64,000 nucleotides of DNA from Yuukianura sp. NJ FZ-2021 (GCA_046563655.1 CM102288.1:2480001-2544000); one strand, 5' to 3'. Positions 15,601 to 64,000 are shown, numbered from the stretch's first letter. Notes: generated from the letters alone by a model not told the origin. Made by a program: numbers and translations.

Positions 15601-18600
15601 CATTATCCCTTCCACGCATAATGTTAAGGGCTCCCAAGTCTCTCCTTGAAAAATCCATTGGTCCGAATAATTTGTCACGAACGTCTGAGCAAAGAATCAC
15701 ATCTTCCTTCTCTGCAATTTGAGAACTCATGCCACGAAGTAGGTCTTCAACTGACGAAGATGCCAAAACATCCTACAAATAAATGTCAAAATACATCGTA
15801 AATGTTGACAGACACAAAAAAAAACATTAAAAACTTTGCCACGTTATTTTCACACGCACACAACAAACGTTAAAATTTCACAAATCAAAATCTCATCCCT
15901 TAGACCACTTATACTGGCAACATTTTTCAAAATTTTGTGTTCCACAACAATTCCACTCAAACATTTGCCAAAACTGATGCCCAGGAAAATCACTCAAGAT
16001 CAGATTTAATTTTGCTGAGGTGGCTCAAGCAGTGTGTACTTCCAAGTATTCCTTACATCTGAGTCCCACCAAGTGGCACAAAGTCGCAATGCTGGAGCCC
16101 CACCGGGAGTTAGCCTAATTGGACATTCGTTTCCTGGAGATGAAGCTCCTCTTCTGTAGATTCCTGGAGGAATCAGCGTATGTCCAAATCGAAAAGCAGC
16201 ACTTTGGAATACATGGGTGATACCCGGATGGGTATCAGCCTTATACCCAGAGTACTCTGGCAGTCGATCACCCAGAAATGCTGGCAAGTATTCATTTACA
16301 ATGATACTCTGAAAAACAAAATCTCATCATCATCTCATCACCAATATCGCCTAAAATAGAGCAGCATCTGAATTTCACATTTCAACACAACCAAAAACCC
16401 GAAATTTTTTATGCACGGCGTTTAAGAATAAAATTTTTACCTGGAGCGTCGCAATTACTCTTCGGCGAGCTTTTTGAAAAATTTCTTCATCAGACCAGGA
16501 TGGATTTGCTTTTTGAATGTTCGCCGCTACTTTGTTGTGGTACCGAAAAAATAGGATTCCAAAGGCCAACAGTGCTGGATTCTGGTTCGTCCGCGCATCT
16601 CCCAACACTAGAAAAAAAATTGCAAACAAAAAACAATGTTACAAAGTAAATAACAAAGGAATAACAGCACCATCATCAATCATCGTTCAAGTTCCAATCA
16701 AAGCCCAATCAAAACCAATGACTGCAACCTACTCAAACACTACATCACAACTCCGCAGTAGTTCGTGACACTTGACACGTACTGACTCAACAATACTTCT
16801 GCAGCATCATTTTCATCTTACAACTTCCCAAACATCAAAGATGAACTTTTGAAACACTCGTCTTCTTAGCCGTAGGCGAACACAACAAAGTCCAATCTTT
16901 CAAATTTTTTGTCACTTTTTTGTCAAAGCAAATCTAAAAGTTGCCGCAGTACTTTGAAGTCCTGATCCAGAATCCGATACCACGCAAATCCTGGACATCC
17001 ATTCTAAACCAAACGTCGTCACTTCTAAAATTCACCTTGTCATACAATCAATTAACCTTGAATCCCCTAGTACTGTTGACACATTCAAACAGTTAAATGT
17101 TGACATTCCTCAATCCAAAAACCACATAAAAAGCCCAAAATTGCAATTCGTTCTGCTTCAACACATTGTTCTCCCCCACAATAACCAGAAATGAATCCAA
17201 ATCATCAAAAAATACAAAGGACTTTTTGAGTTCTAACCCAAAAAATACATTTTTCATCTCAAATCTTACAAAAATAGTGTAACCAAAAACGTCAATTTTG
17301 AGCATCATCATGAAAATAAAGGTAAAGTGGCACACGAAGGACGAGTCATTTCCAAAAACACCCAAGGACATCCAGGAAACGATTTTTCAAGAAGAAAAAA
17401 ACAAAATTTCCAACCAAAATTTTCATTTTAAGACTAAAATTAACAATGCATTTCAAAACTAACACCTTGTTCCCTTCCTTCTTCAAAAATCTTAATCTCC
17501 AAACAAAGGCACTTCAACAACTCTTCACCTACACACAAAAAATGTTACAAAAAAAAGTAGATCTTCAATTTCCTAAAAGCACTTTCAAGTGCAATGTCAA
17601 ACTCTTAAAAAAAAGTAAGAGGCAAAAAGTAAACTGGAACCATAAATTAAAAATTATGACATTTAATTAGTCATAGTCCTTTTAACGATCTCAACCCTCT
17701 CTGTCCTAAGCACACTCCTAAAAATTTCATCTTCCTCCAATTTTTACAAATGCAAAAACAACTAAATCTTTACAATTAAGCACCCTTCATAACGTGCGCA
17801 AATTGGCAAAAAATTACTACGATGAAAAAAAGACACGAAAATGAGCATTTTCCAAATTTTTACCAGCATTTCTTTCAAACAAACGAAACTAATTTTTGAA
17901 ATAATTTTTCAAACACAGGATTTTTTCAGAAGTTTTCTAAACGGCATTCAGGATAGGGGGCTGACTAATCGGCAGAATGCGCTAAAAAATCATCATGAGC
18001 TCATGCCTATTAAATTTTCTTAACAATTCAGTTTCCGCCTCCCCAATTCATCAGTATTCCACAGATGGATTGGCTTTAAAAAAAAAAGTTTGCAAAATTG
18101 GTAAATTTTTTGTTACAAGTGAATTTCCTTTAGGAAATGCACTCTGTTACTAGAAACAATGACATGGGGAGAGCAAGCACAACCATCATCATCATCATCA
18201 AATCATAACCACTTTAAGGTTACTTGCCTCTGACTTCATGAGTGAAGTCCTCATGATGCTGGTGAGGTGGTTACCAATTGTCTACAAAATCCTTCCTAAT
18301 TATAGACTCTTAGTTAGTAATTACACTTAAACTAAACTTCTGCTTCCACTTTTACAATGAAAATGGTGACTTCTGCTGCTGCTTGATGCTTATTCCAATT
18401 CCAAGCAGACAAAGGGCCAAAGGTCCTTCCTGGATCCATTTACAAATTAGAAAATTAGACACACAGCATAGCAGCATCAAGGATACTGGCGTCAACAGCA
18501 TCCGCAGTAGCAGTAGCACCAGGTCTCTACCATTCTCATGTCATCTCTTCCTTGCTCTAATCCAATTGACTACGGTCAGAAGATGAGGAAAAAATGGCAA

Positions 18601-59401: not shown

Positions 59402-61574
59402 ATGGCTGAAATTCCAGCGCCGCCCCAACCCTGGCCAAATACCAAGGAAGACTATGAACTCAATGAAGTCATCGGTGAGTCATGGAAAAAGTTAACCACT
59501 TTTGCATGTTTAACGATTCCCGAGTTTTAAATGTCGTTTTGTACTGGATTTTATGTTTGTAGGTGTTGGGGCGACGGCTGTTGTCCATGCTGCTTACTGC
59601 ATACCTCGCAATGAAAAATGTGCCATAAAAAGAATCAACTTAGAGAAATGGAATACGAGCATGGAGGAACTGCTGGTAATAAATTCGATTTAACGACAAG
59701 AGGTCGAACGTGTTGTTAAGGAATTGATTTATTTCTTTTGTACAGAAAGAGATTCATGCAATGTCATCTTGTCATCACGAAAACGTCGTCAATTACTACA
59801 CGTCGTTTGTGGTCAAAGAAGAACTTTGGCTCGTTCTTCGTCTCCTGGAAGGTGGATCTCTGTTGGACATAATCAAGCATCGTATGAAAACGGCGGACTG
59901 CAAACATGGTGTCTTCGACGAGCCCACAATTGCAACGTAAATGACAACGTTATAATGTTTTTTGATGAAATTTTAAATCATCCATGCTAAATTCTTTTGC
60001 TTCTCCAGGGTTCTCAAAGAAGTCTTGAAAGGTCTAGAGTATTTTCATAGCAATGGCCAAATTCATCGTGATATCAAAGTAAGAAAGTCGTATTTCGAAG
60101 CGATACAGCAAACTAATGAAACTTTCTTATACAGGCGGGCAATATTTTAATGGGAGAAGATGGCACTGTTCAAATCGCTGATTTCGGAGTCTCCGCTTGG
60201 CTTGCCACTGGTGGTGACTTGTCACGTCAGAAAGTTCGACACACGTTTGTTGGAACACCGTAAGTTTTATCCCATACTCCTTCAGCAGCTTGTTACTACT
60301 ATTTACGCGCTGTCAATGTCATTAATCACGTGTATCTTGTTTTGACAGATGCTGGATGGCTCCTGAAGTGATGGAACAGGTTAGTGCAAACATTCCGCTG
60401 TTAATGCTTGTACATATTTTGTAGTTCAACATAACAATAAGCGTTATTTATATATTTTAGGACCACGGCTATGACTTCAAGGCCGACATTTGGTCATTCG
60501 GCATCACAGCGATTGAGATGGTGACCGGAAGTGCTCCATACCACAAGTATCCTCCAATGAAAGTCCTAATGCTTACGCTTCAAAATGATCCACCAACAAT
60601 TGAAACTGGAGCCGAGGACAAGGATCAGTACAGCAAAAACTATGGAAAAACAATCCGGAAGATGATTGCTGACTGTTTGCAGAAAGATCCTACCAAAAGA
60701 CCCACAGCGACTGAACTCCTCAAGCATCCCTTCTTTAAAAAATCAAAAGACAAGAAGTATTTGCAACACACGTTGCTCTCCATTGCTCCAACGGTGGAAA
60801 CAAGAGTTCAGAAGGCTGCCAAGAAACAACCAGCGAGTGGCAAGTTACATCGAACTGTTAGTGGGGAATGGGTATGGTCAAGCGACGAAGAAGACGACGA
60901 CAGTGCCAGTAGTGCTGCACGGAAAAGTATGAGGCGACATTCTTCTGCTCAGGAAACGGCTCCTGGTGGGGCTGACGGTGGCTCAAGTGGAGTTGAGGGA
61001 GCTGGTGGGAACGTTCCTAGGCGACCATCGGAACCGATGCTATCTGGTGGTTCTTATGGTCATTCAAGTCAGATTCAATCTTCAGTGGGTGGTGACGAGA
61101 ATGGACCTTATGCCACTTCGGATGATGAGACACTCAACCTTGTTTTGCGAATGAGGTCAGTACATGAACTTTCACCTTTGACCTTCAACAACCAATGAAA
61201 CGCTAACAATTATAGTCTTTTTTTTTTAGAAATTCGCGCCGAGAGTTGAATGACATCCGATTTGAGTATATACCGGGCAAGGACACTGCTGATGGCATTG
61301 CCTCGGAACTGGTAGGGGCGGGGCTTGTGGACGACAAAGACTTTGCCTCAATAACAGCAAGTCTCCAAAAACTCATCGCCAATCGGAATCAAATCCGTCA
61401 TTTAACATTTCCTCTTGTAAGTTCAAGGACAAATCGATAAACGTTTCAGGTCAACTTGTGCCACTAACTTGACCTTTGACATTTCCCTAACAGAGTTCTG
61501 GCCTACCACCATCAGAGATCCCTGATGACAAGTCATTAATCGGATTCGCCCAGATGAGTATATCAGAGAACTGA
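59402..61574 (+). CDS. fray: STE20-family kinase frayed / OSR1 / SPAK
   Basis: [63 protein letters not shown] domain ([17 protein letters not shown]). Exons from 59218-59474 to 61494-61574. The frame is open upstream of ATG 59402 and may be extended by alternative first exons. Confidence 0.95.
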
Positions 61575-62156: not shown

Positions 62157-64000
62157 TTAAGATTTGATTTTGGGAAAGCCAGTTATTTGTTTCTTTTCTT
62201 CTTTTCTCTTTTGGGCCATCACTTTCTTTCGCAGATGTTCCTTGTAGTCTAAAATTCCACTTTCCCATTTCGTTACAGTTCCTTTTTCACAAACCCAAAT
62301 TTCGTTTGCCACCTAAACCCAAAAAATTGTTCAAAATTTTGATTTTCACAACACCAGTTTGAACGCAGTCAGCTTAAGAAATTGTTCTTTTTTCTCACCT
62401 GAGAAATTAGACGAAAGTCGTGAGAAACAAGAACCATACCACCTTCAAAGTTTGCAATTGCATCGGCCAAGGCATCAATTGTTTCAATATCCAAATCTAT
62501 CAATCACAAAGTTAAAATCAATTGCGTCAATTTGATTTTTTTTTAGTTTGTAAACTTACGATTCGTCGGTTCGTCCAGAAGGAGCAAGTGAGGAGCTTGT
62601 TGTGATATCCAAGCAAAGACAACACGGCATCGTTGACCATCGGAGAGTTGACGAATAGGACTCACCTAGAAATGACATGCACCAGAAGTTTCAACATTAC
62701 ATCTACATGCTGTTTGTGGTGAATTTGTTGACGTGACTGGCGTGATTAATGATTAAAGGAATGATTAATGATTCTCACCTGCTGTTTTCCTGACAGTCCG
62801 TACCGTCCTACGATTCTTCTCATCTCTTCCCGTTCTTTAATTTCTGGGAAGCACTTCATCATGTAGTCGAGTGGTGAAAGATCCAAATCAAGAAGTTCAT
62901 GGAGATGCTGATGGTATCGGCCGAAACGAAGATGAGAGTTCTTGCGGATCATTCCTTCAGTAGGGACAATCTACGAGAAACAAAACATATCAAGTGAACT
63001 GTATGGCAAACATTCTGCTGAATTACTAAATTGAACTTACGTCACCGTAGAGTAGTTTCAGCAGGGTACTTTTTCCAGCTCCGTTCGGACCGACAAGAGC
63101 CAACCTCGTATCCAAATCAATTCCGAATTCTAAGTTTTTGTAGATCCACGGAGACTTGTCATTGTACCGAAAACTGACATTTTGGACCATAATCACTGGA
63201 GGCGGAACTGAAACCAAGAAGTATACATCACAAATTAACTTTTTACTGAATGTTTCTGTTTGAGTTTAGACGTTCTTACTTGTGCCACATGATGGAAAAT
63301 AAAATGAAACAGTTTTATCAGCTGTGACTTTTTCGGCCAATCCACCGGCAACCATTTTGGCCAAAGTTTTCTCTTTGGACTGTGCCTGACGAGCCAATTT
63401 GGCGGATCCGTGTCCAAATCTAGCAATGTAGTTCTACACGACAACAAAAACCAGTAATTAGTACTAAAAAGTATTTCAATAAGCATTCAGCATCAGCATG
63501 CACCTAGACATTCTTTGTGTCTTGTCATGCAGAATCAGGTTCGCTTCGGGTGAGTTATGAACATTCGATCTCGAATTCAGTTCAAATGAAGGTCAACTGA
63601 ATAAATCCGAAAACTTATTGCAGTCGGCACATTCACTTCTTGAAGATCGAGACCGTATTCATCGGCCTCTTAGTTCATCATTTATGCACACACAACTACT
63701 TTTCATAACTACTAAAATTGAATCCATGTTTCCGTACCTTCATGTGAGCAATCTGATCTTGCTCCCAGTTGAACTGCTTCATTTGATTCTCCAGCAATTC
63801 CAGTCGAGTTTGAACGAATTGATCATAATTTCCCTAAGAAAGGAAAATTATTAGACTTTGTGAAATTTTCTGGTGCAGATTGAAGGTGACTTACTCCATA
63901 GTATTTCAGTTTTTTCTTGTCCAAGTGGATGATATTAGTACAAACTCCGTTCATGAAGTCCTGCGAATGGGAAATGATGACCAGGATTCGCTTGTAAGTT
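62157..64000 (-). CDS. ABCF2: ATP-binding cassette subfamily F member 2 (3' part)
   Basis: [69 protein letters not shown]; stop TAA at 62157-62159. The gene continues beyond the window. Confidence 0.95.
63526..63690 (-). ncRNA. Candidate intronic box C/D sno/scaRNA
   Basis: Lies in the 304-nt ABCF2 intron 63434-63737; most neighbouring introns are about 60-110 nt. Box C ATGATGA 63681-63675, box D CTGA 63538-63535 (alternative 63496-63493), TGCA-based terminal stem, long internal stem 63662-63647 with 63574-63557 enclosing two small hairpins. Confidence 0.6.

Follow-up and report, generated by a model that had tools for sequence, protein, structure and literature searches.

The element considered here is a predicted box C/D RNA encoded in an intron of Yuukianura sp. 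NJ FZ-2021, within a stretch of 64,000 nt (GCA_046563655.1 CM102288.1:2480001-2544000, hereafter the window), and the closest described system is the vertebrate small nucleolar RNA (snoRNA) SNORD89, which acts on the 5' end of the U2 small nuclear RNA (snRNA). A modification table assigns human U2 Gm12, the 2'-O-methylated G12, to SNORD89 (PMC7960923), and Deryusheva et al. showed with an assay in yeast that SNORD89 is a guide for this modification (PMC6984369). In mouse cells, knockdown of Snord89 brought Gm11 down by 72% and Gm12 by 37% (Song, Bae et al., PMC11863803), and the same study places the SNORD89 guide upstream of a degenerate D' box, UUGC, and maps FBL and NOP56 Snord89 chimeras to the U2 5' end. 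Gm12 of U2 is needed for splicing in vitro (PMC7960923), and loss of SNORD89 alters hundreds of exons (PMC11863803). The mouse RNA is 110 nt in length, with its sequence given in the supplement of PMC11863803, and its 5' part consists of a terminal stem, box C and a spacer of 14 nt in which AAAAGGCCGA and one further nt come last, followed by UUGC. Its 3' part contains an internal hairpin with CUGA, then CGAUGA 6 nt further on, 11 nt, the heptamer GAAGCGA, 8 nt, box D and the other strand of the terminal stem. The primers and antisense oligonucleotide used for human SNORD89 carry the same AGGCCGA and GAAGCGA elements (PMC11863803). SNORD89 is listed as conserved in 'Deuterostomes', and its human host gene is RNF149 (PMC4914119 supplement).

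How does the Yuukianura intron compare with this RNA? The minus strand of positions 63300-64000 was read as the comparison sequence and was set by eye beside the published SNORD89 sequences. The intron probably encodes a box C/D RNA of ~163 nt, an arthropod counterpart of vertebrate SNORD89 either by descent or by convergence, and from its sequence we read it as a SNORD89-like small Cajal body-specific RNA (scaRNA). Its features are given below with positions counted from the first nucleotide of the window; the RNA runs from high to low coordinates.

63434-63737, minus strand, host intron of an ABC-F family gene (GT..AG, 304 nt), flanked by open exon frames
63527-63689, minus strand, predicted mature box C/D RNA (~163 nt), with ends placed from the terminal stem
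63682-63689, minus strand, 5' strand of the terminal stem, GUGCAUAA, in which 7/8 positions pair with 63534-63527
63675-63681, minus strand, box C, AUGAUGA (A+TGATGA in DNA), read as a motif
63662-63673, minus strand, block 1, a D'-type antisense element CUAAGAGGCCGA (DNA CTAAGAGGCCGA) complementary to U2 nt 9-20
63657-63660, minus strand, putative degenerate D' box GAAU, placed solely by its register with the UUGC of SNORD89
63558-63661, minus strand, predicted internal irregular hairpin of 104 nt that separates the D' region from the C'-like region
63577-63580, minus strand, internal CUGA, compared by eye and perhaps a canonical D'-like box
63561-63567, minus strand, weak C'-like motif CGAAUGU, tentatively assigned by eye
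63541-63547, minus strand, block 2, GAAGCGA, complementary to U2 nt 2-8 and proposed as an extra base-pairing element
63535-63538, minus strand, box D, CUGA, 2 nt (AC) after block 2
63527-63534, minus strand, 3' strand of the terminal stem, UUCUGCAU, partner of 63689-63682
63687-63694, minus strand, (UG)4 tract at the 5' side of the terminal stem, within a possible outer pairing with 63525-63515

Layout shared with SNORD89

The candidate has the general form of its class, with box C near the 5' end, box D near the 3' end and a short terminal stem that joins the two (7/8 flank pairs). Beyond this stem an outer pairing is possible between UUGUGU (63695-63690) and ACACAA (63520-63515). Box C, block 1, GAAGCGA and box D all lie on the minus strand at the positions reported in a preliminary description of this locus. 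In the 5' part, box C is followed by a spacer of 14 nt in which AAGAGGCCGA and one further nt come last, then by GAAU and a hairpin larger than that of SNORD89, and the 3' part reads internal CUGA, CGAAUGU, 13 nt, GAAGCGA, 2 nt and box D.

Set beside SNORD89, the correspondence extends over the whole RNA. Both are intronic box C/D RNAs with a spacer of 14 nt in which GGCCGA starts 7 nt after UGAUGA, both have an antisense element that is complementary to U2 from nt 9 and is followed by a degenerate D', and both have, by eye, an internal CUGA with a C'-like motif after it. Directly after box C, the candidate carries a D'-type element against U2 nt 9-18 in which G12 would occupy the fifth position, again as judged by eye. 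The heptamer GAAGCGA stands upstream of box D in the candidate, mouse and human RNAs, and in the candidate it occupies the box-D spacer at a distance from box D that differs from the other two. The preliminary description had proposed a box C/D RNA with its target at the U2 5' end, and this proposal is supported by vertebrate SNORD89, which has both elements and has them in this order.

The two RNAs also differ. The candidate is ~163 nt long as against 110 nt in mouse and ~108-114 nt in human (from coordinates), and this greater length is due to its 104-nt hairpin. The gap between GAAGCGA and box D is 2 nt here as opposed to 8-9 nt in mouse and human, the D' box is GAAU rather than UUGC, and SNORD89 is catalogued in deuterostomes whereas the candidate comes from an arthropod.

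Pairing with the U2 5' end

The U2 target used throughout is the 20-nt start quoted in the preliminary description, which is identical to the human U2 forward primer in PMC5716273; the Drosophila U2 primer (PMC13228274) has the same start except at nt 17, where A replaces U. The species' own U2 is taken to begin in a similar way. A script that searched for complements of this start returned as its top results block 1, with 12 bp including 2 G-U pairs to nt 9-20, and block 2, with 7 Watson-Crick bp to nt 2-8, such that the two targets abut. These two blocks are the best matches to the U2 start adjoining the boxes, and the split antisense element with adjacent targets that had been proposed earlier is thus reproduced. 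The duplex between the 14-nt spacer and the U2 start has a predicted energy of -20.1 kcal/mol, which none of 2000 shuffles reached, and the box-D spacer against the Drosophila-type start gives -13.8 kcal/mol (5/2000 shuffles). A second U2-complementary 8-mer, AGAAGUGA, is found at 63633-63640 (minus strand) in the 5' arm of the hairpin, where it matches U2 nt 2-9 with 1 G-U; it duplicates the specificity of block 2 and, by a rough estimate, lies near chance expectation.

Could matches this short arise by chance, as the preliminary description had allowed? The calculated chance of a block-1-like match in a target library of 10^4 nt is ~0.065, and that of a target-adjacent block 2 lying 12 nt or less from box D is 5e-4, giving a joint chance of ~3e-5 for the two blocks together. 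The calculated chance per candidate of GGCCGA in the SNORD89 register combined with GAAGCGA no more than 12 nt from box D is ~4e-8. A warning nevertheless comes from the C/D core itself. Among 38 RTGATGA..CTGA combinations on both strands of the window, two have at least 7/8 flank pairs, one being the candidate RNA and the other, at 18198-18051, a (GAT)n microsatellite, and for this reason the core motif is suggestive rather than proof. The microsatellite (18051-18198, minus strand) was rejected as a second C/D RNA, being a (GAT)n repeat with CTGA 140 nt later and unlike the candidate, and it serves as a caution about snoRNA calls made on motifs alone. One hypothesis is that no functional RNA is made and that the boxes, the stem and the complementarity arose by chance in an intron rich in A and T, and it can point to this artefact as one of the two best C/D-like matches in the window, as well as to the lack of an Rfam match. 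The joint chance of the SNORD89-like layout, the failure of every shuffle to reach the spacer duplex, the stability of the interior hairpin (z -4.78) and the absence of the full pattern from 596 Gb of prokaryote contigs make it very improbable.

Which nucleotides of U2 would be the target of a SNORD89 counterpart? The preliminary description applied the D+5 rule to block 2 and arrived at U2 G4, which is probably not the intended site; the SNORD89 register points instead to G12 (and G11), which are known methylated positions. In block 1, C63665 faces U2 G12 and C63664 faces G11, and the block stops 1 nt before GAAU, a D' box defined by the SNORD89 register alone. The sequence leads us to regard block 1 as an ordinary guide of the D' type that has a degenerate D' box and is aimed at G12 (and G11). 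By analogy with known guides, block 2 is best read as an element for extra base-pairing to U2 nt 2-8 that is not necessarily a guide for G4. The rationale for this statement is the 8-9-nt gap in mouse and human, which puts D+5 beyond the U2 5' end, so that the conserved role of block 2 would be pairing and not methylation of G4. The presence of GAAGCGA in this arthropod, in mouse and in human likewise suggests that U2 nt 2-8 take part in an accessory pairing. The mouse Snord89 chimeric enhanced crosslinking and immunoprecipitation peaks for FBL and NOP56 cover U2 positions 0-24 and 0-22 (PMC11863803 supplement); since they span the targets of both blocks, they are compatible with both being engaged. 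In the accessible text on SNORD89, including PMC6984369 and PMC11863803 and leaving figures aside, a pairing of the block 2 type with U2 nt 2-8 goes unmentioned.

An alternative hypothesis is that block 2 is a true box-D guide and that U2 G4 is methylated instead of, or besides, G11 and G12. The geometry allows for this, since block 2 stops 2 nt before box D and forms 7 bp at positions 3-9 with C63543 facing G4 at the fifth position, and the neighboring block 1 could stabilize so short a duplex. A 7-bp duplex is nevertheless short for a guide, and in mouse and human the heptamer lies, as judged by eye, too far from box D for its D+5 to fall within U2. Moreover, the modifications that the human U2 table gives for the region of the 5' end are Am1, Um2, Gm11, Gm12 and Gm19, and Gm4 is not among them (PMC7960923). 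We consider a G4 guide unlikely and retain the reading of block 2 as an accessory pairing element within a SNORD89 counterpart.

The first eight nucleotides of U2 are single-stranded and nt 9-25 form stem-loop I, and it is because of this arrangement that a toehold or clamp function is proposed for block 2. The RNA is presumably expressed and protein-bound, and its action may be pictured as follows. Splicing would release the intron RNA, and trimming would leave the box C/D core closed by its terminal stem, on which the usual C/D proteins, the methylase fibrillarin among them, would assemble. The spacer of 14 nt that follows box C would then pair with U2 nt 9-20, with the degenerate D' next to it, placing G12 at the fifth and G11 at the fourth paired position for 2'-O-methylation of both, as for SNORD89. 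Beside box D, GAAGCGA would pair with the single-stranded nt 2-8 adjacent to this target, and the resulting toehold or clamp would help the guide invade stem-loop I and so raise the efficiency of methylation. The 104-nt hairpin would be looped out between the two blocks and may bear localization or stability signals.

If the candidate is a true protostome counterpart, then the guide, and probably the modification too, would date back to the bilaterian ancestor. As a broader and more tentative hypothesis, two-part recognition of the U2 5' end might be an ancient, bilaterian-wide property of the SNORD89 class, in which a D'-type guide to nt 9-20 is combined with a conserved GAAGCGA toehold clamp to nt 2-8 that opens stem-loop I for Gm11 and Gm12. 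The clamp would have moved beside box D in this arthropod lineage, where it could add Gm4.

The same pairing could also serve a purpose other than modification. The two blocks together cover U2 nt 2-20, and a modification-independent chaperone might use this bipartite 19-nt pairing to keep the U2 5' end open during maturation of the small nuclear ribonucleoprotein. The highly degenerate D' and C' motifs of the candidate would suit such a role, and Song et al. report that many novel snoRNA-target interactions are low in methylation and may act without modification (PMC11863803). On the other side, the homologous SNORD89 layout directs methylation (PMC6984369, PMC11863803) and highly divergent C'/D' motifs can be active (PMC3116282), so that a chaperone appears quite improbable beside a methylation guide of the SNORD89 kind.

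Interior hairpin, database scans and host gene

The interior of the candidate (63661-63548) folds into a single long irregular hairpin over 63661-63558, with a minimum free energy (MFE) of -36.2 kcal/mol and a stability z of -4.78 (0/200 shuffles as stable). The preliminary description had reported a branched stem of ~105 nt here, and a 104-nt hairpin is indeed found; in the MFE structure it is unbranched, with an apical loop of 4 nt. The candidate intron RNA is single copy within the window, and a repeat or transposon origin of the hairpin was rejected for want of a second copy there.

A further possibility is that the matches to U2 are incidental, the candidate being an ordinary snoRNA directed at ribosomal RNA (rRNA) or its inner hairpin a precursor microRNA. 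The latter draws on a weak Rfam match of 63580-63642 to mir-4791 (E 0.1-0.24). This match reaches 20.4 bits where the gathering score is 100, such that the precursor microRNA model fails at its gathering score, and the 4-nt apical loop and the nesting of the hairpin within a larger stem do not favor a microRNA precursor. Neither an rRNA-directed snoRNA nor a precursor microRNA accounts for the SNORD89-like pair of elements, and this is the least probable of the explanations weighed here.

Searches beyond the locus were made with Rfam and with two large sequence collections. The whole window gave 0 Rfam matches at gathering score, and on the candidate region the matches are at chance level, with SNORD82 and SNORD43 aligning just box C; no Rfam similarity to the Drosophila U2 C/D scaRNAs was found on this region. 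A metagenome scan for box C, block 1, a gap of 95-125 nt and block 2 returned 5 loci, 4 of which resemble unrelated sequence; L001 and L005 are GC-rich, and no Rfam snoRNA match occurs among the 5 loci. Some 2-4 such loci had been expected beforehand on a rough, uncomputed estimate, and all 5 are taken as chance. One AT-rich locus, L002 (401-535, minus strand), shows a box-C-like UGAUGA and, in the SNORD89 register, an element of the AAAAGGCCGA type, with GAAGCGA following after 100 nt; lacking CUGA after the heptamer, it was judged a chance match and rejected as a homologue. To control for specificity, and on the slim prospect of catching contaminating host DNA, the prokaryote genome collection (596 Gb of contigs) was scanned with the full pattern plus box D at gaps of 40-70 and 100-130 nt, and this gave 0 matches.

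Several observations weigh against a SNORD89 counterpart. The preliminary description had named Rfam as a check on its candidate, and the SNORD89 model (RF00578) was unmatched at E <= 10 on regions of 401 nt and 176 nt; moreover, neither the metagenome scan with its 5 chance loci nor the empty prokaryote scans provided a homologue elsewhere. The host is an ABC-F gene as against RNF149 in human, such that synteny is not shared. The putative D' box GAAU matches 0/4 positions of CUGA, and AUGA (63662-63659), an alternative D' of the candidate chosen by motif, would put C14 and not G12 at the fifth position. The MFE structure places the D' region within the paired foot of the hairpin. A Drosophila-type A17 in U2 would introduce one internal mismatch into block 1 and weaken the spacer duplex to -16.1 kcal/mol, a value reached by 3/2000 shuffles, and the box-D spacer alone against the vertebrate-type start gives -11.9 kcal/mol, a modest advantage over shuffles (66/2000). 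The best match in the candidate to the Drosophila Cajal-body signal (the CAB signal, cgaGUUAnUg) has 3 mismatches over its 9 specified positions. Finally, the target itself constrains its guides and convergence is possible, so the shared motifs are no proof of common descent. As regards the change of host, snoRNA host genes often differ between lineages.

The preliminary description had assigned the intron to ABCF2. Open exon frames lie on either side of the intron (63696-63833 and 63266-63433), the 3' end of the candidate RNA is ~93 nt upstream of the 3' splice site, and the host gene is clearly a member of the ABC-F family. Since the best matches of the adjoining exon (63026-63265) are yeast ARB1 (5.9e-19) and human ABCF1 (9.9e-19), the family is clear and the label ABCF2 is only plausible. 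The open-access literature yielded nothing relevant on a snoRNA in an ABCF2 intron. Adjoining the ABC-F gene, 60461-61198 on the plus strand encodes, in one large exon, part of a STE20 kinase of the OSR1/SPAK (frayed) type. Its identity to springtail and insect OSR1/SPAK is ~56-66% along the full length and up to 83% within the conserved part, such that the source is an arthropod lacking a near relative among the proteins compared; the top match is labeled as a nematode (Toxocara) among arthropod matches and may be a mislabeled or contaminant record.

Comparison with known guides

Among arthropods, the natural comparison is with the U2 scaRNAs of Drosophila, for which the C/D methylation guides named are mgU2-25, mgU2-28, mgU2-41 and mgU2-48 (PMC3884663). 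Like the candidate, these are intronic arthropod C/D guides for 2'-O-methylation of U2. They differ from it in that none of the guides named in the accessible text targets G11 or G12 and in that they carry a CAB-type signal, cgaGUUAnUg, that was not found in the candidate. In vertebrate C/D scaRNAs, the Cajal-body element is a G.U/U.G wobble stem (GU/UG repeats) at the tip of the apical hairpin; the apical helix of the candidate is not a wobble stem, and a (UG)4 tract lies instead 5' of the terminal stem. Because neither a Drosophila-type CAB signal nor a wobble stem is evident, the label scaRNA is unproven. Any relevance of the (UG)4 tract at 63687-63694 to Cajal-body targeting is speculative. 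No protostome SNORD89 or guide for U2 G11 or G12 was found in the open-access literature, figures and some supplements aside.

A second comparison is with snoRNA guides that use extra base-pairing. Such elements are conserved, comprise 4-11 bp immediately beside the methylation site, often occupy the second guide region and stimulate methylation up to five-fold (PMC3116282), and, together with unusual C'/D' motifs, extra base-pairing enables methylation of two neighboring sites (PMC5389607). In yeast snR13, snR75, snR87/U16 and others (van Nues et al. 2011; van Nues and Watkins 2017), a second element in an otherwise unused guide region has a target that adjoins the methylation site, as is the case here. 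Block 2 likewise has a target, nt 2-8, that abuts nt 9-20, and its conservation is that seen with mouse and human. The association in those guides of extra base-pairing with divergent C'/D' motifs and two-site methylation parallels the pair Gm11 and Gm12. There are two differences, in that the target of those guides is rRNA and here it is U2 snRNA, and in that their elements, but for one exception, are not adjacent to box D, whereas block 2 lies 2 nt from it. SNORD89 (HBII-289) is not among the human extra base-pairing examples in the accessible part of PMC3116282.

The preliminary description had also suggested an atypical, discontinuous guide. A new class of guide is improbable here; block 1 has the form of a normal D'-type guide and block 2 fits the description of extra base-pairing (PMC3116282). 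The candidate belongs to a known kind of RNA, that of SNORD89, and is not a new RNA type.

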